Assembly: GCA_028708605.1 (NCBI GenBank)
Contig: JAQVYS010000003.1
Span: 2,436 to 66,435 of the forward strand
Source of the DNA: Bacillota bacterium
GTDB lineage: Bacteria; Bacillota; DTU065
Direction of reading: 5' to 3'
DNA length: 64,000 bases
In this document: piece by piece, positions 1 through 42,071 of the stretch
Position numbering within the stretch: the first letter of the stretch is position 1
Layout of the letters: each line of letters begins with the position of its first letter
Translations under genes and position numbers: made by a program
Notes under the pieces: generated by a model
Database searches by the model: none
What the model was told of the DNA's origin: nothing
What the model saw: only the letters and a program-made list of their open reading frames with translations

Positions 1-92
1 TTAGGCGTTTTGCGGTAATGTAGGTTATTTTCTAGAATCGAAGAAGATGAGAAAATTCGTGTTTGGTTTTTTCTAAAGAGGTGTGACAGAAT

Positions 93-1991
93 ATGAGTGA
101 TCGCTACAATTTTGAACTGGTAGAAAAAAAGTGGCAAGAAAAGTGGCGAGAATCGGGGCTTTATAAAACCAAAGCTTTCACAGAGCCTAAGTTCTACTGT
201 CTCGATATGCCTCCTGATTCATTTATCGAGTTCCATATGGGTTATGCGAGAAATTACACCGCATCTGATGTGATTAGTCGCTTTTATCGCATGCAGGGCT
301 ACAATGTTTTCCATCCTCTAGGCTTTTTTATGCTAGCATTAACAGACTTAAAAGAAGCTAAGCTTAGGACCAGAGACGAGATAGCCACAAAAGTTGATCA
401 AATAACACAGTTTCTCGAAAAGCTAGGCTTAAGTTATGATTTTGAAGAGGATCTGTGGGGCCTAGAAACTCAGGTTTTAAAATGGAGTAAGTGGCTGTTT
501 TTAGAGCTCTTTAAAAAAGGTTTTATCTATAAGAAAAAGAGCTCGAGAGCTTGGTGCCCTTCTTGTAAGGTTTTTCTTGTAGAAGAGGAGGTTACTGGAA
601 AAAGTTGTGAAAAATGTGGCAGTGAAACCCTTCTAAAAGAAACCTTTGAGTGGTTTTTAAACTTAACCCCGTATGCTAAAAGTCTACTAAATAACTTAGA
701 TACACTCTCTGGCTTACCAGATAGGGTAATTGCTATGCAGAAAAATTGCCTAACAAAAAGGCTCTATCTGGATGGGAGATCCGAGAGATATTTACTTAGC
801 GATTGGTTAATTGCCAAAGAAAGTTCTTTTGGCATTCCGGTTCCTATTTTGCATTGCAAAAACTGTGGAATGATGCCTGATGAAAAGTTGCCAATAGTAG
901 TCTCTCAGAATAATGAAAAACAACAAGAAAATCAAGAAAAAAGCTTAGGTACTTTTTGCCCAAGGTGTAAAGGGGAGGCCAAAAGAGATACTGCTAAGCT
1001 AGATAGTTCTTTTGTTTCTTCTTGGTTCTATCTACTATTTGCAGATGTTTCCATGGCGGAGCTCACTAAAAGCATAACTACAAAACACTGGATGAATGTG
1101 GATCTTCTTATTGAAAACATAGATCAAGCAGGTTTAAATCTTTTACATGCTAGGTTTATCAATATGTTTTTATATGATCTTGGTTTGTCTCTAACTCAGG
1201 AGCCATTTAATAAAATAGTAGTTAGTGGTACTGTGTTACTTAACGGAACTAAGATGGAGGGTTCTAACACCGTAGAATTAGACAGGATGGTCAGAGTTTA
1301 CGGAGCAGATACTTGTCGGTGGTTTATGATTTTTTCAGCTCCCATAAAAAGCGACTTTGAGTGGAACGATGATGCCATAGAAGGCTCGTACCGCTTCATA
1401 AACCGAGTTTGGCGGGTAGTTTGTGATGCAAAGCATATACTGGAGGACTCCAAAGCAGACCTAAAACAAGAGTTTACAAAGAATGATAACAAGCTTAAAG
1501 AATGTCTTTACCAGACTGTAAAAAACGTCACCGTGATCTTGCAAAATGGCTCTCAGCTTAATACTGCCTGTAGCTTACTGATGGAGTATACAAATGAGAT
1601 CCAAAGCTATCTCTATACATCAAAAAGCGTTGGAAAAAAGTTTAATGCTAGCTTATTAAAAGAAGCTATAGAGAGCCTTTTAAAAATGCTTGCTCCTTTT
1701 GTTCCTCACGTAGTATCCGAGTTATGGGAAATTCTAGGATATAACGAAGATGTCCATAGTTGCATTTGGCCAAGCTTTAACAGTGATCTTGTCAACTTTA
1801 CAGATAGAGAAGTTGTTCTACAGATTAATGGCAAAAAGAGGGCTAAACTCACCCTGCCTTTAGATACAGATCAAGAGGATCTTAAGAGACAGGCTCTAGA
1901 AAACGAGAAGATAAAAAGCTTTTTAGAAGGTATGGAGATAAAGAAGATTATCGTTGTTCCTGGAAAAGTTGTTAATATTGTTGCAGGATAA
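93..1991 (+). CDS. Leucyl-tRNA synthetase-like paralog (632 aa), predicted catalytically inactive. HIGH motif reads HMGY, KMSKS reads KMEGS, the WDAFGLP motif is lost and the CP1 editing domain is absent. The Zn knuckles, anticodon-binding domain and C-terminal domain are conserved.
   Basis: N-terminus (EKKWQEKW...KFYCLDM...RNYTASDVISRFYRMQGYNVFHP) aligns to bacterial LeuRS. GADTCRWFMIFSAP...RFINRVW and the C-terminus VLQINGKKRAKLTLP...FLEG...VVPGKVVNIVAG are LeuRS-like. Length is 632 aa versus about 800-860 for a bacterial LeuRS. Confidence 0.75.
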   Translation: MSDRYNFELVEKKWQEKWRESGLYKTKAFTEPKFYCLDMPPDSFIEFHMGYARNYTASDVISRFYRMQGYNVFHPLGFFMLALTDLKEAKLRTRDEIATKVDQITQFLEKLGLSYDFEEDLWGLETQVLKWSKWLFLELFKKGFIYKKKSSRAWCPSCKVFLVEEEVTGKSCEKCGSETLLKETFEWFLNLTPYAKSLLNNLDTLSGLPDRVIAMQKNCLTKRLYLDGRSERYLLSDWLIAKESSFGIPVPILHCKNCGMMPDEKLPIVVSQNNEKQQENQEKSLGTFCPRCKGEAKRDTAKLDSSFVSSWFYLLFADVSMAELTKSITTKHWMNVDLLIENIDQAGLNLLHARFINMFLYDLGLSLTQEPFNKIVVSGTVLLNGTKMEGSNTVELDRMVRVYGADTCRWFMIFSAPIKSDFEWNDDAIEGSYRFINRVWRVVCDAKHILEDSKADLKQEFTKNDNKLKECLYQTVKNVTVILQNGSQLNTACSLLMEYTNEIQSYLYTSKSVGKKFNASLLKEAIESLLKMLAPFVPHVVSELWEILGYNEDVHSCIWPSFNSDLVNFTDREVVLQINGKKRAKLTLPLDTDQEDLKRQALENEKIKSFLEGMEIKKIIVVPGKVVNIVAG

Positions 1992-2034
1992 TACCGGCTA
2001 ATACAGAAAAATAGAATTACAACAGGGAACTTCA

Positions 2035-2071
2035 TCTAGTGTAGATGAGGCTCCCTTTTTTGTTTTGGAGG
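2035..2071 (+). terminator. Rho-independent terminator downstream of the LeuRS-like gene
   Basis: GGGAACTTCATCTA-gtg-TAGATGAGGCTCCC stem followed by TTTTTT. Confidence 0.65.
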
Positions 2072-2079
2072 GATTTTAG

Positions 2080-2622
2080 ATGAAACTATCAGGTAGAGAA
2101 AAGAGGTTTTTGGTAGTTGTAGCTTTAGCGATCCTATTTTTCTCAGTAACAGAGTCTGTTCTTACAAGCTATCGGATTGGACTTGCAAAAGGTTTAGAAA
2201 CAGAGCTACAAAAAGAGGAAATCGCAACAAGTACAAACTTAAATTTGTCTGTAGAAAAAAGTCAAGATGAGAGAAGGCTAGTTGTAAAATCAGAAGACCT
2301 AAAACCTGAAGTTAAAGATACCGATGAAGCCGGAATCGAAGAGGCAAAAAAGTCAAATCATCTAGAAAGCACCTCTTCTAGTACCACTCAAAACGCAGAT
2401 TCTAAAGTAGCTAAAACTGCAAACGGAAAACCTTTGCTAAACATTAATACAGCAGATTACGATCAGCTTGTTGAGCTACCTGGAATAGGACCAGTATTAG
2501 CAGAGCGAATTTTGACTTATCGCCTAGAAAAAGGACGGTTTCTTTCTCTAGATGAGCTAATGGAGGTCAGGGGTATTGGAGAAAAACTACTTCTCAAAAT
2601 TAAGCCATATCTTACAATCTAA
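2080..2622 (+). CDS. comEA: Competence protein ComEA (membrane-anchored DNA receptor with a C-terminal helix-hairpin-helix)
   Basis: N-terminal TM segment; C-terminal LNINTADYDQLVELPGIGPVLAERIL...LMEVRGIGEKLLLKIKP tandem HhH; RBS GGAGGG 7 nt before the ATG. Confidence 0.85.
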   Translation: MKLSGREKRFLVVVALAILFFSVTESVLTSYRIGLAKGLETELQKEEIATSTNLNLSVEKSQDERRLVVKSEDLKPEVKDTDEAGIEEAKKSNHLESTSSSTTQNADSKVAKTANGKPLLNINTADYDQLVELPGIGPVLAERILTYRLEKGRFLSLDELMEVRGIGEKLLLKIKPYLTI

Positions 2623-4882
2623 GCTTGGTTTTTGGCCTTTACTCTTTCTCTTTCTTGTATTTGGTATTTTGTTCGGTGAGTATGTTCACGTGCCTAGTTA
2701 CTTTTATCTTTGTGTTCTCATAGCATGCGTTTTTTTCTGGCTTTATGCTTTAAAGATCCCAACGATTTTTTATTGGCTTTTAATTGTTTTTGCAAGCTCT
2801 CTTTTGCCTCAGCATCTAAAGATCAATGATAATATGCTAGAAGATTACCTTAGTGTTGATCTATGTTTTTATGTAGAGGAGGTAAAAGGCTCAGTAGAAG
2901 AAGGTTTTAAAGCTCAGATATTAAGTGAAGAGGGAAGATTTTATCTCTACAGCAATTTGCCACTATATCCCGGGGAACTAATGCAGGTTAGAACCCAGTT
3001 AAAACCAGTTTCTCCTGCAAAAAACCCCGGCGAGTTTTGCTTTTTTAGCTATCTAAAAAGCCAAAATCTGAGAGGGACTGGACAGCTCAACTTTGAGTGG
3101 CAAATTATCGAAAGAAAGCAAACACTAAAAAGTATTATCTTTAAGGTACTTTATAATCTACGTGATCTTGGTAAGCTCCGCTTTGAGAACCTAACAACAG
3201 GTAGTCTTTATAGCGCTTTGGTTTTTGGTACAGGCTTAGACGAAGAACTGGCTGAGACATCTAGAACTGCCGGGACGTCACATTTTCTAGTTGTCTCTGG
3301 ACTGCATGTAGGATATCTGGCAATTATTATTCAAAAACTCGCAGTCTTTGGCTCCGGTTCAATTATGACAGTTGTCTTTTTGTTTTTTTATGCTTTTTTA
3401 GTAGGAGGCACACCTTCTGTATGGAGGGCAGTCTTATCTTACCTTATTGCACAAAAGTCTAAATCACGAATGCTAGATCGATTGGCCTTAACATTGACTC
3501 TAATGCTAGTTTTAAAACCTTCTTGGTTATTTTCACTCTCGTTCCAATATAGTGCTCTTGCGGTTTTTGGCATCGCTCTTTTAGAAAATTGGGAGATCTG
3601 GGGGCCCTTAAAAGTCGGATTAGGAGCTTCTTTAATGGTGCTTCCACTGTCACTTGTTAAAAACCGGAAAATGAATCTACTTAGTCTTCCAGTTAACATC
3701 CTCTTAGGTCCTGTGATTGGAGTTATGATGCTGCTTGCTTTGGTCTATTTGGTAGTTCCGGTGGGACTTTTAGGAAGTGTCTTGGATTTTTTAGGCTTGG
3801 CGTTTGTTTGGATAAACGAAGTGATGACCTCATTTACCTTTGCGGTTTCAGGGTTTAATAATTGTGAAGCAATATTCTTTTGGGTTTTGTTGTTTTTTAT
3901 CTGGCATGAAGGCCGGATACTTCCACAAAAAAGGCTCCTACTTCGCAGAGTTGTTGTTGTTTTTTTAGTAATCTGCGTCACAATTAGCGTCAATTTTCTA
4001 TTGGAGGCACTTCGCCCGGTAGAACTGTATTTCTTACAAATTCTCGATGGTGATGCTGCTTTGGTGCGCTTACCATATGGTAGAGGTGTTTTAATCGACA
4101 CTGGCTCTAGAACAGATACATTTGATGGAGCAGAAAGGATCTTAAATCCCGCTCTCTTATTTTTAGGGATAAAGAGGATTGAAACTGTATATTTAACTCA
4201 CAGTCATTTAGATCATATAGGTGGCTTAGAAAACTTAGTTTTCTGTGATAAGATAATGATAGGAAATGAACTCTTAAATCAGAAAGAAAAGCTTAGACAA
4301 AAAGCTCCTGTTTTGTTAGCTAAAGATGAAGCCTTTTCTTATGGAACAAAGTTTGAGGTACTAGATTTAGGACAAGAAGGGGGAGATCCCAATAACAACT
4401 CCTTAATACAGGTTGTTGAGATTTTGGGATGGAAGATTCTTTTTACTGCCGACAGGGAGATGGAAGGTCTAGAGGTCCTAAATGAGCTAGCTCTTCCTGT
4501 AGATATTGTAAAGGTACCACATCATGGCTCACCTGGGTCTTTGCATAGAGAGTGGATGGAGACAACTACAGCGTCAGTTGCCGTCTTTACTGGTGGGAAA
4601 TACGGTCGGCCAGACCCAATGGTTGTCGAAGCATGGCAGGATCTTTCTGCAAGAGCATTAGTGACAAAAACTGATGGGGCAGTAAGAATTCGGTTTTATT
4701 TAGATAGGATGCAGGTGGATCAATGGCAAAATGGTGCTTTCGCAGAGCAATTTACCATAAATAGGGATCTAAAGAGACAGAACTTAGGTGGGATAAATCT
4801 ATGGCAAAAGCTAAAAACCACATATTTCTCTTGTTTGGAGAAGATGAATATCTACTTGAGGAAAATACAAAAAAGCTTTTAG
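2576..4882 (+). CDS. comEC: DNA internalisation competence protein ComEC/Rec2 (polytopic membrane domain plus C-terminal metallo-beta-lactamase domain)
   Basis: 768 aa with multiple TM helices and a C-terminal LTHSHLDHIGG...VPHHGS MBL signature; synteny after comEA. The start may lie downstream of the listed one. Confidence 0.85.
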   Translation: MEKNYFSKLSHILQSKLGFWPLLFLFLVFGILFGEYVHVPSYFYLCVLIACVFFWLYALKIPTIFYWLLIVFASSLLPQHLKINDNMLEDYLSVDLCFYVEEVKGSVEEGFKAQILSEEGRFYLYSNLPLYPGELMQVRTQLKPVSPAKNPGEFCFFSYLKSQNLRGTGQLNFEWQIIERKQTLKSIIFKVLYNLRDLGKLRFENLTTGSLYSALVFGTGLDEELAETSRTAGTSHFLVVSGLHVGYLAIIIQKLAVFGSGSIMTVVFLFFYAFLVGGTPSVWRAVLSYLIAQKSKSRMLDRLALTLTLMLVLKPSWLFSLSFQYSALAVFGIALLENWEIWGPLKVGLGASLMVLPLSLVKNRKMNLLSLPVNILLGPVIGVMMLLALVYLVVPVGLLGSVLDFLGLAFVWINEVMTSFTFAVSGFNNCEAIFFWVLLFFIWHEGRILPQKRLLLRRVVVVFLVICVTISVNFLLEALRPVELYFLQILDGDAALVRLPYGRGVLIDTGSRTDTFDGAERILNPALLFLGIKRIETVYLTHSHLDHIGGLENLVFCDKIMIGNELLNQKEKLRQKAPVLLAKDEAFSYGTKFEVLDLGQEGGDPNNNSLIQVVEILGWKILFTADREMEGLEVLNELALPVDIVKVPHHGSPGSLHREWMETTTASVAVFTGGKYGRPDPMVVEAWQDLSARALVTKTDGAVRIRFYLDRMQVDQWQNGAFAEQFTINRDLKRQNLGGINLWQKLKTTYFSCLEKMNIYLRKIQKSF

Positions 4883-5748
4883 ATGGTTTTACAGAGACTG
4901 CTATCATCTCAGCTAGTGAAGCTGAGGAGTCGCAGATTAGAAATGAATTATGTAGTTTAGGTTTTTTTACAGACTCGAAAGCTGTAATAATAGAGGATTT
5001 AGAAAAACTTGATGTAAATAGGGGAGAAAGTATTACTGCCTTTTTGGAGAATGTACCAGATAAAATAAGAGTAATATTTAAGGCCAGGAGCTTAGAGGGC
5101 ACTCGCAAATGGGTCAAGTCGTTAAAAAAACAGGCCGAAGTAATTGATTGTGCTCCGCCAAAGCCTTATCAAATAACTAGGATGTTAGCAAAAGAAATAG
5201 CTGAGTTAAAACTTGATAGAGAGGAAACTGAGTATCTTACAAATGCTCTTCCGTTAGATCTTGCAGGTTCCCACAGTGAACTTGATAAACTCAGTCTTTA
5301 TCCAGACAAGCTTGATTTAAAAACCCTTAAGCTTCTGATCGAACCAGCGCTAGAAAATCAAGTGTTTACTTTGATAGATTTTTTGGTAAAACAGGATCTA
5401 AAAAACTCTTTAATTACTGTCAAAGAATTGATGGGATCAGGTAACGACCCCTTTGCAATATTGGGGGCTATTATTTGGCAGCTCCGCGTCCTATATAAGG
5501 TCTCTGATTACAGAGGTAACGATCCTGTGCGCGAATTAAATGTTAAAGAATACCCTTATAAAAAAGCTAAAGAGTCTCTTAGAAGGCTTTCTAAAGCCCA
5601 AATCGAAGAGTGGTTCTTGCTTACCCTTGAGTCCGATATGAGTATTAAAAGAGGGGTTCTTAGAGCGGATGCTGCTCTTGAAGTACTTGTCACTAAGATG
5701 TGCTTAAGTCTTCCGCCAAACAGAGTATTAAAGTGTGAAAACACCTGA
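4801..5748 (+). CDS. holA: DNA polymerase III delta subunit
   Basis: 315 aa, HIFLLFGEDEYLLEE N-terminus typical of HolA/YqeN; position after comEC matches B. subtilis. Confidence 0.75.
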   Translation: MAKAKNHIFLLFGEDEYLLEENTKKLLDGFTETAIISASEAEESQIRNELCSLGFFTDSKAVIIEDLEKLDVNRGESITAFLENVPDKIRVIFKARSLEGTRKWVKSLKKQAEVIDCAPPKPYQITRMLAKEIAELKLDREETEYLTNALPLDLAGSHSELDKLSLYPDKLDLKTLKLLIEPALENQVFTLIDFLVKQDLKNSLITVKELMGSGNDPFAILGAIIWQLRVLYKVSDYRGNDPVRELNVKEYPYKKAKESLRRLSKAQIEEWFLLTLESDMSIKRGVLRADAALEVLVTKMCLSLPPNRVLKCENT

Positions 5749-5792
5749 TTACCTAAAACGTATTACAGCTTCGAGTTTGGCTTCATATGGTT

Positions 5793-5843
5793 TAAAAAAA
5801 TAACCGCTAATCAATTTTGGTTGATTAGCGGTTATTTGCTTTT
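5793..5843. terminator. Bidirectional rho-independent terminator between convergent holA and the ADP-ribosylglycohydrolase gene
   Basis: Perfect 15-bp inverted repeat ATAACCGCTAATCAA-ttttgg-TTGATTAGCGGTTAT flanked by an A-run and a T-run. Confidence 0.75.
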
Positions 5844-5849
5844 ACCTTT

Positions 5850-7484
5850 TTAGTAAGTCGATGTCTCTAGTCTTAAATAGTCCCAGTATGCAGCTTCAAA
5901 TGACCAGTTATTAGGGTAGTTTTCTACTCTAATATCAACAGTTTGACCAGCATACTTAGCTAAAGAAACTTCTAGATCATACCAGACGATCTTCTGGTCT
6001 TGTCTCTCAATTAGTTTGGTAAAGATTAACTCATCATTCACATACACCCTAAGCTCCCAATCCGCAGTTAAATGTGTTGGGTGAGCACTCCCGTTAAAAC
6101 TAGTTACGCCCATTTTAAGCGTAGTAGAGGTTTGCTCTGGTAGAGTTTGTGTCCGGACAAAACTAAAGGGAGTGTTTTGATTTAGTGGATGGCTGGCAAA
6201 AACTGTATCTCTGCCTTCATAGGATTGCATAATGCCAGGGTTCATGTCCCAACCAAGGTTCTGTATCTCCCAGCCTTCTTCCCAGTCCTGTATCATACTC
6301 CCAGCTATCATATCATCTGACCAGGGCTCCTTATATTCGGGAGTTACTGTATTAAAATCTGGTAAAGCGATGGTTTCGCTTTGATCTAAGGATCCGCCAT
6401 TTTTTCTGATGTTTTCAATTCCTATCTTAACAGTTCTTTCTGCAATATCAGTTATCGTAAGATAAGCCGGAGCCATTTGGAGAACACTATTATAATACAG
6501 GTTGTTCAAGGGACTTTTCCAACGCTCAGGAATATTTTCAGCTCCAAGAAACGTCCCTATAATACCGCCAGCAGATGCAGCATTACAGTCATTATCTAGA
6601 CCAAACTGTACTGCTAAAGCTAAAGTTTTGTCAAAATCTCCCTCCCCGTATAACAAGGAGAGAACCACCATTGCTCCATTAATGTCAGCGATAACCCAGC
6701 CTCCAGTAGGTGTTTGACCGGCTTTATAATATTTTCGATAAACCATACTTCGTGCACGTTTACAGCTATCAGGGTAGGTCTGATATGCTTCAATTGCATA
6801 TTTAATTACTTCATAGTAGCGGCTTTCAGCTGGTATAAACTCGAGAGCCTGATTAATCAATGACGGGATATCGTCTTCAATAAACGCAAGGCTATATAGA
6901 GCAGCGATAAAGCGACCGCCATATTCGCCGTCAGAATAGGCCATGAGTTCACCCATCTTCGAGGCGTACTCAGTTCCAATATCGGGCATACCAGGTGAAA
7001 TTAATCCCCAAATGTCCGCCTCTATCTGAGCATCGATGTAAAGAGAATATTCGTTATTAGAAGGATGACCTGTAAGTGGAGGCATAATTCCTTCTTCAAT
7101 ATTGAGCCTAGCTCTGTAGTTAGCACATGCCATCGACCCAGCAACAATTTGTCTTTGCCATTCTTTGGCTAAATCTGCACTTGTTAGTTCTATACCATAT
7201 CTTTCTAAAGCATATAACCAAACTAAATCGTTAAATGTATCATCATCTGATATAGCATAAGACGGTGTGTTCGCGTAGTAGGTTAGTGATGTCGGACCCA
7301 TACCAGAAATAAAGTGACCCTCAGTTGGTAAGCCAAAGATATTACCTATCATTTGTCCTAGCCAACCTCCGTGGATCTTGTCTTGGTAGGAGTCTAGTGA
7401 AATTGTAGCTGCACTTCCTACTAAACTAAGAAGGATAACAACCAGAAGAAGATAATAAGATTTTTTGATTTTAAGGTTATACAA
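5850..7484 (-). CDS. Secreted or membrane-anchored ADP-ribosylglycohydrolase (ARH/DraG) family protein with a C-terminal beta-sandwich, carbohydrate-binding-like module. TTG start.
   Basis: N-terminal signal/anchor KIKKSYYLLLVVILLSLVGSAA; DKIHGGWLGQMIGNIFGLPTE and FGLDNDCNAASAGGIIGTFLG resemble ARH-fold metal-site motifs; about 170-aa C-terminal extension ending WSFEAAYWDYLRLE. Confidence 0.7.
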   Translation of the reverse strand: MYNLKIKKSYYLLLVVILLSLVGSAATISLDSYQDKIHGGWLGQMIGNIFGLPTEGHFISGMGPTSLTYYANTPSYAISDDDTFNDLVWLYALERYGIELTSADLAKEWQRQIVAGSMACANYRARLNIEEGIMPPLTGHPSNNEYSLYIDAQIEADIWGLISPGMPDIGTEYASKMGELMAYSDGEYGGRFIAALYSLAFIEDDIPSLINQALEFIPAESRYYEVIKYAIEAYQTYPDSCKRARSMVYRKYYKAGQTPTGGWVIADINGAMVVLSLLYGEGDFDKTLALAVQFGLDNDCNAASAGGIIGTFLGAENIPERWKSPLNNLYYNSVLQMAPAYLTITDIAERTVKIGIENIRKNGGSLDQSETIALPDFNTVTPEYKEPWSDDMIAGSMIQDWEEGWEIQNLGWDMNPGIMQSYEGRDTVFASHPLNQNTPFSFVRTQTLPEQTSTTLKMGVTSFNGSAHPTHLTADWELRVYVNDELIFTKLIERQDQKIVWYDLEVSLAKYAGQTVDIRVENYPNNWSFEAAYWDYLRLETSTY

Positions 7485-39605: not shown

Positions 39606-42071
39606 GTGATTTATGTGCCAAAAGAGATATGGAAGGTATTGCAAATACCAACTTCAAAGCAGGTCGATCTAGCAGAAAAGCTTGGTTGTTCACTGACACT
39701 CGCTCAGATTTTAGCTTTGCGCGGTATAGAGGATCCTGAGAAAGCGCAGCTTTTCCTTAAAGAAGGTGGACCTTTTCATTCTCCTTATAAGTTAAAGGAC
39801 ATGGACAAAGCTGTAAAAAGGATAATAAAGGCTCTAGATAATCAAGAAAAGATTATGATCTATGGAGACTACGATGTTGATGGGATTACAGCTACAGCTA
39901 TCCTCTTCGATCTTCTTGAAGGAAGCAAAGTAGACGTTAGTTATTATCTCCCAGATAGGCTCGAAGAAGGCTACGGTCTTAATATAGAGGCAATTGAGCT
40001 CTTACACCAAAACGGAACCGATCTACTTATTACAGTAGATTGTGGCATAACTTCAGTTGAAATTGCCAAAGAAGCTAAAGAAATGGGTATGGATTTAATC
40101 ATTACGGATCACCATACGCCACAAGACACTCTTCCAGAGGCTATCGCGGTAATAAATCCCCACTTAAATAGTTATCCCGCATCTTTGTGTGGAGCAGGGG
40201 TTGCGTTAAAGTTAGCTCAGGCGCTAAGCAGGGAGGCACCCCATTATTTTCAACTTACCCCACTTACAGTTCAACTAGCAGCCTTTGGTACGATTGCAGA
40301 CATTGTTGATTTAACTGATGAAAACCGCCGCATTGTCAAAAATGGACTCTATAGCATGAACAAAGAACCTATTCCAGGTATTAAAGCCTTAATAGATGCT
40401 ACAGGTATAACAGACAGCGAAATAGATGCAACGAAGGTCTCTTTTGTCTTAGCTCCTAAAATCAATGCAGCTGGAAGAATTGATTCAGCTGAGGTTGGTC
40501 TTAAAATGCTATGTGAAAAGGATTATGAAAAAGCCTTAGAGATTGCCCACAGCCTTTGTCAGTTAAATACAGAAAGACGATCTATAGAAGATGATATTCT
40601 TACTGAAGCAATTGAAATGGCAGATCAGCAATCTCACCACAAGGCGCTTTTAGTCGCGGGTGAAAAATGGCACAGTGGTGTTATCGGGATTGTAGCCTCT
40701 AGGTTAGTTGAAAAATACCATAAACCAGCGGTAGTAGTTGGGCTAGAAGATGAAGTGTGCCATGGCTCTTGCCGCAGCATTGAAAGCTTTGATATCAACA
40801 AGGCTTTAGGGGATCTTGAGGAACACCTAGTCACATTTGGTGGTCACAAGATGGCAGCTGGTTTGTCTGTTAAAAAGGATCAGTTTATCAGCTTTCAAGA
40901 GGCATTTTTTGAATATAGTGATACCCACATAACAGAAGAGGAATTAATTCCTAGGGCTACAATTGATTTGGTAGCAGACTCTAAGCTTTCAACTAGCTTA
41001 GTTGAGGAACTTGCACTGTTAGAGCCTTGTGGTGCCGGCAATCCTAAGCCTGTTATCGGGATAAGAGCTGCAACGTTAGAAAAGGCCTATTTGGTTGGTT
41101 CTAATAGGCATCTCAAGCTTCAAGTAGGATACGCTGGTGAGAGCTATGATGCGATAGCCTTTAATATGGCTCATTTAGAGAAGGAGATCCAAGAGACAGA
41201 AAGTGTAGATATAGCAGGTTATATGCAAATCAATGATTATCAAGGTAGAAGGTCTCTAAACCTGAACGTCAAGCATCTCAGAAAAAGCGATTTTTTATGG
41301 GAGGGCCCAAGCGAGGAGCTTCTATGGCTATTTTGGCAGTCTCTGCCCTCAGGGGAGCTAAACCATTTAGCGACAAAGTGCCTAGAAGGTAAAACACAGC
41401 TTGATCTACCTAAGTGTGGTATTATTTCTACACTTAATGAAATAAAGTCTAGATTGTTTATAAGCCCAAAAGTAACATTTGTCCAAACCTCAAGAGAGAT
41501 AGAAATGCCAACTGTTAAGCCTCAGCTTGTCAAGGGAGAAGCTGGCTTTGTGATAGATGATGATAACAAACTTTTGGCTTTTATTGCCTCAGGGGCTAAG
41601 CAATGCACTTTATCATATTTACCACTAGATTATTGGCTGTGGAGGCTATTTTGGGAGGTCGCCCAAAACTCTGATGTAGTCGGTATTGATTTTGAGAAAA
41701 ATGAGTTTACAAAAGTAATAAGAGCTCATCATATAAAATATCCCAAAGACGATGACTTAAGAAGAATCTATATCTATTTCAAAAGTACAAGCCAAGGATC
41801 GATTTGGCAAGAGAGCTTTCGACAGGGTGCCTTAGATATGCAAAATCGCTATCATAAGCCTTTTAGCGAAGACAGCATTAAAACAGCAGTCAGGATTTTT
41901 GGAGAATTGGGCCTACTAGAGAAAGTTAAAATCAATGGTAGTAATAAAATAGGATATTTACTTAAAGATACTAAGCAAAAACTAGACTTGACGAGCTCTC
42001 TAAGCTATAATGAGGGTATATTTATAGAGCAAGAATTAGACAAGTACGCTATTGAAATAGAAGCGATTTAA
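39606..42071 (+). CDS. recJ: Single-stranded-DNA-specific exonuclease RecJ (with a long C-terminal extension)
   Basis: DHH (IYGDYDVDGITA...ITDHH) and DHHA1 domains; the start is probably the GTG at 39615. Confidence 0.85.
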   Translation: MIYVPKEIWKVLQIPTSKQVDLAEKLGCSLTLAQILALRGIEDPEKAQLFLKEGGPFHSPYKLKDMDKAVKRIIKALDNQEKIMIYGDYDVDGITATAILFDLLEGSKVDVSYYLPDRLEEGYGLNIEAIELLHQNGTDLLITVDCGITSVEIAKEAKEMGMDLIITDHHTPQDTLPEAIAVINPHLNSYPASLCGAGVALKLAQALSREAPHYFQLTPLTVQLAAFGTIADIVDLTDENRRIVKNGLYSMNKEPIPGIKALIDATGITDSEIDATKVSFVLAPKINAAGRIDSAEVGLKMLCEKDYEKALEIAHSLCQLNTERRSIEDDILTEAIEMADQQSHHKALLVAGEKWHSGVIGIVASRLVEKYHKPAVVVGLEDEVCHGSCRSIESFDINKALGDLEEHLVTFGGHKMAAGLSVKKDQFISFQEAFFEYSDTHITEEELIPRATIDLVADSKLSTSLVEELALLEPCGAGNPKPVIGIRAATLEKAYLVGSNRHLKLQVGYAGESYDAIAFNMAHLEKEIQETESVDIAGYMQINDYQGRRSLNLNVKHLRKSDFLWEGPSEELLWLFWQSLPSGELNHLATKCLEGKTQLDLPKCGIISTLNEIKSRLFISPKVTFVQTSREIEMPTVKPQLVKGEAGFVIDDDNKLLAFIASGAKQCTLSYLPLDYWLWRLFWEVAQNSDVVGIDFEKNEFTKVIRAHHIKYPKDDDLRRIYIYFKSTSQGSIWQESFRQGALDMQNRYHKPFSEDSIKTAVRIFGELGLLEKVKINGSNKIGYLLKDTKQKLDLTSSLSYNEGIFIEQELDKYAIEIEAI

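Follow-up and report, generated by a model that had tools for sequence, protein, structure and literature searches.

The leucyl-tRNA synthetase (LeuRS) of Mycoplasma mobile (MmLeuRS; 637 aa) contains a 9-residue linker in place of the CP1 editing domain and the residues GKDG in place of the leucine-specific domain (LSD), and is active, with a kcat of about 1.8 s-1 (PMC3643597). The archaeal proteins LeuRS-I of Sulfolobaceae (Weitzel et al. 2020) and LeuRS2 of Natrialba magadii (Fang et al. 2014) bind tRNA(Leu), with no or only bare charging (PMC9437257, PMC4005665). LeuRS-I has a disrupted CP1, matters for optimal growth and still forms leucyl-adenylate (PMC9437257). A review gives the function of both proteins as unknown, but thought to be tRNA-dependent (PMC9437257). 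Our literature searches found no description of a bacterial LeuRS pseudoenzyme or 'LeuRS-like' protein. In this study we analyzed a gene encoding a LeuRS-derived protein of 632 aa, located in a 64,000-nt stretch of DNA (hereafter the window) of a Bacillota bacterium (GTDB lineage DTU065; assembly GCA_028708605.1, contig JAQVYS010000003.1, positions 2,436 to 66,435 of the forward strand). We consider it rather probable that this gene is an ancestral, vertically inherited leuS, converted in place to a catalytically dead, selected pseudo-LeuRS that probably still binds tRNA-Leu.

The gene begins with an ATG codon, preceded by a Shine-Dalgarno (SD) sequence, AAAGAGGTG, at window positions 75-83. 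The Pfam matches of its product are tRNA-synt_1 and Anticodon_1. The best NCBIfam model is leuS_bact (TIGR00396), with a score of 447.1 bits, which is under the 548.4-bit equivalog cutoff; for this reason the identical protein is labelled "class I tRNA ligase family protein [Firmicutes bacterium]" at NCBI. The leuS_arch model remained far behind (122 bits), and the genes around the short gene are those of a Firmicute, i.e. the protein is not of the archaeal type. The alignment with the LeuRS of Thermus thermophilus (Tt) comprises three blocks (query residues 3-219 = Tt 2-223, 232-383 = Tt 416-579 and 392-630 = Tt 644-875). These results confirmed the derivation of the product from LeuRS, which had been claimed in an earlier annotation of the window (the original prediction).

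Two alignments were prepared: A1, composed of the 632-aa (short) protein, six syntenic orthologs (P0002-P0007) and two outgroups, and A2, composed of 80 sequences, i.e. the short protein and 79 LeuRSs. Inspection of A1 revealed that PYPSGRLHMGH of the orthologs is replaced in the short protein by PDSFIEFHMGY, GWDAFGLPAENAA by GFFMLALTDLKEA, IGGVEHAILHL by IENIDQAGLNL, and KMSKSKGN by KMEGS--N. Thus, the alteration of HIGH, WDAFGLPAE and KMSKS that had been noticed in the unaligned sequence persists, for each motif, in a gapped alignment with six orthologs and two outgroups. The fourth position of HIGH is His in all, or nearly all, of the 79 aligned LeuRSs, and the short protein does not contain HxGH. 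Residues Tyr43, His52, Asp80, Glu540, His541, His545, Gln574 and Lys640 of the T. thermophilus enzyme are those which we take to bind leucine or ATP. In the short protein the equivalents of Tyr43, Asp80, Glu540, His541, His545 and Gln574 are D42, F79, D344, Q345, N349 and S378, respectively, so the leucine/adenylate pocket is not preserved. At the columns conserved in at least 95% of the 79 LeuRSs (222 aligned), the short protein departs at 91, whereas its relatives depart at 1.4 columns on average and at no more than 13.

The degeneration is not a property of the whole lineage, as had also been predicted: HisRS and AspRS encoded in the window are canonical and clear their equivalog cutoffs widely (500 bits, cutoff 287, and 886 bits, cutoff 443, respectively), and the syntenic orthologs of the short protein are canonical LeuRSs (P0002 scores 1099.7 bits with leuS_bact).

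The CP1 editing domain, predicted to be missing, is indeed absent: approximately 190 aa (columns 224-415) are deleted, a stump of about 16 residues, NCLTKRLYLDGRSERY, stands in their place, and the Pfam scan of the 632-aa product gave no match to PF13603. The deletion is clean, in frame and located at domain boundaries. The LSD of the T. thermophilus enzyme also has no counterpart in the short protein. This part of the original prediction holds as far as the absence is concerned, but not its peculiarity to the short protein: the canonical orthologs of the clade, which read ..LLGGAKMSKSKGN.., likewise have no large leucine-specific insertion, and therefore, of the two absences, only the CP1 deletion distinguishes the short protein.

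Both zinc modules (all eight cysteines), the GADTCRWFMIF stretch and the C-terminal sequence QINGKKR...VPGKVVNIVAG are intact, in agreement with what had been read from the sequence. The anticodon-binding domain (ABD) and the C-terminal domain (CTD) characteristic of bacterial LeuRSs retain 25 of their 27 highly conserved columns. The residues of the CTD retained by alignment include Q577, equivalent to Tt Gln822, and R583, equivalent to Arg921 of Mycobacterium tuberculosis (Mtb) and Arg811 of Escherichia coli (Ec). Tt Gln822 contacts G19 at the tRNA elbow, and Mtb Arg921 / Ec Arg811 contacts the long variable arm (PMC3561953).

An AlphaFold model generated with the 80-sequence alignment is LeuRS-like (pLDDT 81, pTM 0.79) and can be placed on LeuRS structures with TM values of 0.77-0.82; being threaded on the family alignment, it provides weak independent evidence of folding. 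Its low-confidence segments are residues 86-91 (just past the degenerate WDAFGLPAE), the CP1 stump (224-229) and a loop (269-280). An earlier model, based on 9 sequences (pLDDT 52), was discarded. Neither the Pfam scan nor the model revealed a new domain or motif.

Locus, distribution and rate of evolution

Seven independent assemblies contain the short gene and differ in it by no more than one synonymous single-nucleotide polymorphism (SNP; nt 1588 of the gene). This excludes an assembly artefact. The identical protein is present in four NCBI metagenome-assembled genomes (MAGs), under the accessions MDD2430898.1, MDD4264000.1, MDD4692918.1 and MFA6693991.1, and in several metagenomes. Among the MAG assemblies are GCA_028684605.1 (L001) and GCA_028702985.1, and the sources of the protein include landfill leachate (JGI 3300014206) and the SRR223155xx samples. 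Coordinates in the window equal those in L001 minus 9093 (window position 1 = L001 9094).

The genes of L001 are arranged in the order: rRNA/tRNA array, RRM protein, SBP, HD, LytR, RsfS, methyltransferase (MTase), [UvdE-DUF1722, 264-aa ORF], short leuS, comEA, comEC, holA, [ADP-ribosylglycohydrolase], rpsT. The original prediction placed the gene directly upstream of comEA-comEC with its own terminator; comEA indeed follows, beginning at position 2080, and a terminator-like hairpin is located at 2030-2073. The order RRM-SBP-HD-LytR-RsfS-MTase-[leuS]-comEA-comEC-holA-rpsT is common to L001, carrying the short form, and to L007, L011 and L017, carrying full-length leuS. The nearest homologs of the short protein (P0002-P0007; 41-46% identity) form six clusters of canonical LeuRSs of 819-820 aa, each from another sample, and comEA/comEC follow wherever flanking DNA is available (including P0005-P0007). 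The RsfS-leuS arrangement was also found in a more distant Firmicute. Given this conserved RsfS-MTase-leuS-comEA-comEC-holA slot, the short gene is the positional ortholog of the leuS of the clade. The term "paralog", under which it had been described, is thus inappropriate, since the gene occupies the only visible leuS slot of the clade and is not an extra copy at a new locus.

In the relatives, a T-box leader (RF00230, 108-111 bits) lies upstream of leuS; its specifier, GAA-CUC-G, is conserved and corresponds to Leu. A check for a T-box or other leader upstream of the short gene had been proposed as well. The Rfam search of this region detected no T-box even at E<=10, and no other credible riboswitch or leader, and only approximately the last 40 nt of the ancestral leader can be aligned. 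Judging from this comparison with the relatives, the T-box is cut off by a rearrangement which inserted the UvdE-DUF1722 gene and the 264-aa ORF.

The proteins encoded by neighbouring genes place L001 about as far from L007 and L011 as L017 is (ComEC 57 vs. 56% identity, HolA 58 vs. 59%, HD 55 vs. 54%). Intact LeuRS orthologs separated by this distance are 77-80% identical, whereas the short protein shares only 45-46% (46% for L001-L007 vs. 77% for L017-L007), and dN amounts to 0.47-0.48 for the short form vs. 0.145 for the intact orthologs. Because of saturation at synonymous sites (pS 0.71-0.89), dN/dS could not be used, and the analysis was confined to dN comparisons and a simulation. The acceleration is approximately five-fold and lineage-specific, and the resulting rate is similar to those of ComEA and the methyltransferase, which are the neighbours under the least constraint.

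The 632-codon frame is open in DNA of 38% GC, with neither the frameshifts or stops nor the neutral pattern of a pseudogene. In a simulation of neutral evolution, in which random mutations were introduced under the base composition of the gene until identity had fallen by the excess amount (indels were ignored), the frame stayed open in 0 of 1000 replicates; at just 15% amino-acid change it was still open in 2 of 1000. Site retention is graded: 174 of 291 family-invariant positions (60%) are kept, compared with 57 of 137 positions invariant in the close clade only (42%; Fisher p = 6e-4) and 50 of 194 variable positions (26%). It is also domain-specific, with 86 of 167 conserved columns retained in the catalytic body vs. 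25 of 27 in ABD and CTD (p = 3e-5). Conservation with the relatives extends to the SD sequence, the start codon and the N-terminal residues MSDRYNFE. This pattern supports selection on a protein that would be non-catalytic, rather than neutral decay. The same reading had been given in the original prediction, and both the outcome of the simulation (0/1000) and the dependence of retention on conservation class and domain speak for it.

We also searched for a further LeuRS that could accompany the short protein. Searches of 5.8 billion protein clusters and 1.84 billion representatives gave no second copy from within the clade, and the 64-kb window contains no second leuS or other class I synthetase. 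Several candidates were rejected. The 821-aa ORF at 39606-42071 encodes RecJ. P0002-P0007 come from other samples and, wherever flanking DNA is available, are followed by comEA/comEC, and are therefore orthologs of other species. P0104, whose mix of sources is like that of the short form, belongs to another organism, and 10 LeuRSs labelled '[Firmicutes/Bacillota bacterium]' have accession numbers not adjacent to that of the short form. In a scan of a collection of representative genomes, which does not include the short-form species and clade, the best match was 33% identical.

Proposed role and alternative explanations

The ancestral leuS has lost its Leu T-box leader, CP1 and active-site residues at its own locus, and has kept its frame, translation signals, both zinc modules, the overall LeuRS fold and the conserved tRNA-binding positions. 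On this basis we propose the following scenario. The protein would no longer form Leu-AMP or charge tRNA; with such a dead active site, another LeuRS encoded elsewhere in the genome should supply Leu-tRNA(Leu). As no second copy from the clade is found in the databases, the displacing LeuRS would most likely be a horizontally acquired xenolog. The relic would be kept by selection, its most likely activity being the binding of tRNA(Leu), or of a tRNA-like RNA, by the C-terminal half, without charging; the bound tRNA might be sequestered, chaperoned or sensed. The role of a leucine sensor or leucine-binding protein, which had been suggested, is unlikely, because the equivalents of the leucine pocket are among the replaced residues.

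Several observations weigh against this scenario. The short form is known from a single species-level lineage in all the clusters and representatives searched, and this weakens the idea of a conserved short-form family that had been put forward. A second leuS from these MAGs was not found by the checks of candidates described above, which are indirect and not a genome search. A simple promoter scan upstream of the short gene gave no clear sigma-70 promoter. Every domain evolves faster than in the orthologs, by a factor of 2.3 in the KMSKS-distal region and ABD, of 3.4 in the CTD, and of 5.4-5.9 in ZN1 and the second half of the Rossmann fold. The acceleration of ABD and CTD means that tRNA binding is under less constraint than it is in a functional LeuRS. 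Identity between the strains is 99.9%, and the total polymorphism (2 synonymous and 3 nonsynonymous SNPs) is too sparse to reveal present-day selection; the substitutions F44L, E46K and F136L of the one variant, P0121, and its single synonymous change are all located in the dead catalytic half. Finally, we infer the tRNA binding, expression and inactivity of the pseudo-LeuRS from its sequence, and that of one uncultured species.

An alternative, which we regard as unlikely although it fares best among those considered, is a new function unrelated to tRNA(Leu), e.g. a Rossmann pocket accommodating a new ligand, or a scaffold acting as a partner or regulator in the manner of HisZ for HisG. Synthetase-like proteins in non-translational roles are common, the catalytic body has been remodelled and not deleted (both zinc modules and roughly half of the conserved positions remain), and the short gene has acquired new upstream neighbours, UvdE-DUF1722 and the 264-aa ORF without a Pfam match. 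However, it is in the tRNA-binding ABD and CTD that conserved positions are best kept (25/27), among them the equivalents of the G19 and variable-arm contacts, and the model contains no new domain or motif. The degraded equivalents of the nucleotide-binding HIGH and KMSKS argue further against a new adenylate-forming activity.

The chance is smaller that the gene is a functionless relic, that is, a pseudogene whose frame has stayed open by chance after another leuS took over. This would explain why all catalytic motifs and the T-box are gone, why all parts of the protein evolve faster than in the orthologs (2.3-5.9x), and why the gene is restricted to a singleton lineage with 3 nonsynonymous vs. 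2 synonymous SNPs within the species. It is difficult to reconcile with the loss of the open frame in every one of the 1000 neutral simulations at the excess divergence, with the non-uniform retention that tracks family conservation and domain, and with a CP1 deletion that is in frame and at domain boundaries in a gene whose 8 zinc cysteines, SD and ATG are intact.

It is very improbable that the short protein is still the only LeuRS of the cell, active by means of compensating residues or a partner protein. At least eight substrate-contact equivalents are replaced simultaneously, and the catalytic body has changed at 81 of 167 near-invariant positions; moreover, an essential lone enzyme would not be expected to evolve about 5x faster than its orthologs or to dispense with T-box control. 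These points outweigh the location of the gene at the one conserved leuS locus and the lack of a second copy, both from the clade in the databases searched and, by indirect checks, from these MAGs. MmLeuRS is the working LeuRS of its organism and is active without CP1 and LSD, but its active site (PDB 3ZIU) holds Leu-AMS. We give equally little credence to a sole LeuRS homolog that has a remodelled class I site without HIGH, KMSKS and the leucine-binding Asp, perhaps aided by a partner, or to a yet-unknown charging route. Were the short protein the only LeuRS after all, the same might hold for the reduced leuS of Ca. Fermentithermobacillus carboniphilus, which is also found at the ancestral locus. 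In the complete genome of this bacterium, P0146 (QUL97605.1; L114, 7001-8755) contains NMEH and GMSKS, has no CTD and is encoded directly upstream of comEA; no second LeuRS of this organism was found among the top 120 matches, and no full-length copy from the clade is present there.

The least credible explanation is that the open frame serves solely to prevent polar effects on the transcription of comEA-comEC-holA: holA, presumed essential, is indeed located downstream on the same strand, but polarity would not produce residue-level, domain-specific conservation, and terminator-like hairpins separate the short gene from comEA.

Feature coordinates and neighbouring genes

The positions of the features of the short gene and its surroundings are presented in Table 1.

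Table 1. Features of the short leuS gene, its product and adjacent DNA (window coordinates).
Feature	Position	Strand	Details and evidence
Surviving remnant of the Leu T-box leader	55..92	+	Terminator 3' half and T-run, SD AAAGAGGTG (75-83), spacer to ATG; alignment with relatives' leaders
LeuRS-derived ORF (putative pseudo-LeuRS)	93..1991	+	632 aa, stop codon included; ORF call, Pfam/NCBIfam, alignments
Degenerate HIGH	234..245	+	H48-M-G-Y51 (Tt His52 -> Tyr); preceding PYPSG loop = PDSFI (Tt Tyr43 -> Asp42); alignments
Degenerate WDAFGLPAE block	324..350	+	FFMLALTDL; Tt Asp80 equivalent = Phe79; alignments
ZN1 module	555..617	+	Four cysteines kept (C155, C158, C172, C175); alignments
CP1 deletion junction	744..791	+	~16-residue stump in place of ~190-aa editing domain; columns 224-415 gapped; low-pLDDT linker 224-229
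Second zinc module	855..968	+	Four cysteines kept (C255, C258, C289, C292); alignments
Degenerate GGxEHAxLH block	1113..1139	+	ENIDQAGLN (Tt Glu540 -> Asp344, His541 -> Gln345, His545 -> Asn349); alignments
Degenerate KMSKS	1251..1265	+	K387-M-E-G-S391, second Lys (Tt Lys640) -> Gly, then 2-residue deletion; alignments
Catalytic body, residues 1-383			86/167 columns of >=95% conservation kept; A2
Residues 384-440			20/28 columns of >=95% conservation kept; A2
Anticodon-binding helical domain (ABD), residues 441-565	1413..1787	+	17/18 columns of >=95% conservation kept; PF08264 75.5 bits; pLDDT 80-98
C-terminal tRNA-elbow-binding domain (CTD), residues 566-632	1788..1988	+	8/9 conserved columns kept; alignments
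Two overlapping terminator-like hairpins between short gene and comEA	2030..2073	+	L001 11123-11166
comEA, comEC, holA	2080..5748	+	comEA 2080-2622, comEC 2576-4882, holA 4801-5748; downstream neighbours marking the ancestral leuS locus; ORFs, synteny

The comEC ORF, which starts with TTG at 2576, shares 47 nt with the end of comEA, and holA as listed (4801) shares 82 nt with the end of comEC (4882); the true start of both genes is possibly located further downstream.

The UvdE-DUF1722 fusion (420 aa) and the 264-aa ORF, for which no Pfam match was obtained, occupy L001 6835-8923, between the methyltransferase gene and the short leuS. They were found only in the short-form lineage, exactly at the position of the T-box leader of the relatives. 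A perfect 12-bp hairpin, GCAAAACGCCTA-TAAT-TAGGCGTTTTGC, is located at L001 9079-9106, approximately 80 nt upstream of the start of the short gene. The window includes only its 3' half (positions 1-13). The hairpin is accompanied by weak T tracts on either strand, has no Rfam match, and could be the terminator of the upstream ORF or a new regulatory element.

Between holA and rpsT the short-form lineage carries an ADP-ribosylglycohydrolase-family gene (PF03747; 544 aa; window 5850-7484, minus strand), which is absent from this interval in L007, L011 and L018. It is a second lineage-specific insertion at the locus.

In L007 and L011, the Leu (CUC) T-box leader upstream of full-length leuS contains a complete tRNA-Ala(GGC) gene with an encoded CCA, called by both Rfam (62.7 bits) and ARAGORN. 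It is embedded between the stem III region and the antiterminator (leader 6297-6569 and tRNA 6452-6527 in L007; leader 5688-5961 and tRNA 5844-5919 in L011). The leader of L017 (4464-4750) carries an unrelated insert of approximately 70 nt at the same position. To our knowledge, a T-box riboswitch with an embedded tRNA gene has not been described.

Comparison with known systems

Pseudo-synthetases illustrate how essential translation enzymes are recycled into new roles, and the non-charging LeuRSs studied so far are only archaeal duplicates without a known function. The short protein would be a bacterial case with an unusually clear history, in which the riboswitch, the editing domain and the active site were lost, and the scaffold and tRNA-binding surfaces were kept. 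If this is true, two linked events are implied: (i) the displacement of an essential gene by another leuS and (ii) the retention of the displaced copy for a different purpose. The protein would also constitute a natural minimal, catalytically silent LeuRS scaffold, suitable for studying what a synthetase limited to tRNA binding does.

The original prediction considered the architecture to be undescribed, which does not hold in view of the active MmLeuRS devoid of CP1 and LSD, the archaeal non-charging duplicates, and the CP1-less proteins present in several phyla.

The M. mobile enzyme in structure 3ZIU is the closest in architecture: it has approximately 635 aa, a short linker in place of CP1, no LSD, and the catalytic body, zinc modules, ABD and CTD. 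The short protein likewise has short linkers in place of CP1 and LSD on an otherwise complete scaffold, and can be aligned with 3ZIU from end to end (query 3-630 / 7-636; TM of the model 0.73-0.80, normalized to either length). The two differ in that MmLeuRS is active and has intact catalytic motifs, whereas the short protein does not have the equivalent residues. In addition, the short protein is 26% identical to 3ZIU in the structural alignment, as opposed to 45% identity with the syntenic Firmicute orthologs. The two proteins thus do not share descent from a common short form, and CP1 was lost independently.

The canonical leuS_bact orthologs P0002-P0007 share with the short protein their ancestry, locus, MSDRYNFE N-terminus, zinc modules, ABD, CTD and the VPGK-VNIVAG sequence. 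In contrast, they have 820 aa, contain CP1 and the motifs HMGH, GWDAFGLPAE, GGVEHAILH and KMSKS, are preceded by a Leu (CUC) T-box, and score 1100 bits vs. 447.

An exhaustive search revealed further CP1-less LeuRS-like proteins, 584-706 aa in length, which recur in Bacillota and Armatimonadota as well as in a Leptolyngbyaceae cyanobacterium and a nanoarchaeon (P0125, P0130, P0133, P0141, P0146, P0151, P0167, P0190, P0213, P0240 and P0254). They are labelled 'class I tRNA ligase family protein' by PGAP; their motifs are workable in most cases and partly degenerate in a few. This suggests that the label may hide scattered, independently reduced relatives of LeuRS. P0146, P0254 (from the cyanobacterium; NLEH and KMSIS) and P0167 (from the nanoarchaeon; HIGY and KFSKR) resemble the short protein in being derived from LeuRS, in lacking CP1 and in having partly degenerate motifs. 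However, most of these other CP1-less proteins keep GWDAFGLPAE and a workable KMSKS, and none is as fully degenerate; we found no characterization of any of them. They are 30-35% identical to the short protein, which indicates that the reductions arose independently.

HisZ, a HisRS paralog regulating HisG, is similar in that a synthetase scaffold without aminoacylation has been kept for another role. Pseudoenzymes of this type differ from the short protein in belonging to another synthetase class and family, in having a known partner and function, and in being widely conserved and not confined to a single lineage.

LeuRS-I and LeuRS2 are functionally the closest, being derived from LeuRS, with charging lost or nearly lost; affinity for tRNA(Leu) is kept in these proteins and may be kept in the short protein. 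They are, however, extra copies of archaeal or chimeric type that exist beside a canonical LeuRS, whereas the short protein is of bacterial type and encoded at the ancestral locus. LeuRS-I still makes Leu-AMP, whereas in the short protein the adenylate site is ablated and CP1 is cleanly deleted. It is probable that the short protein represents a synthetase-derived pseudoenzyme, or non-charging LeuRS, of a kind that is rare in bacteria.

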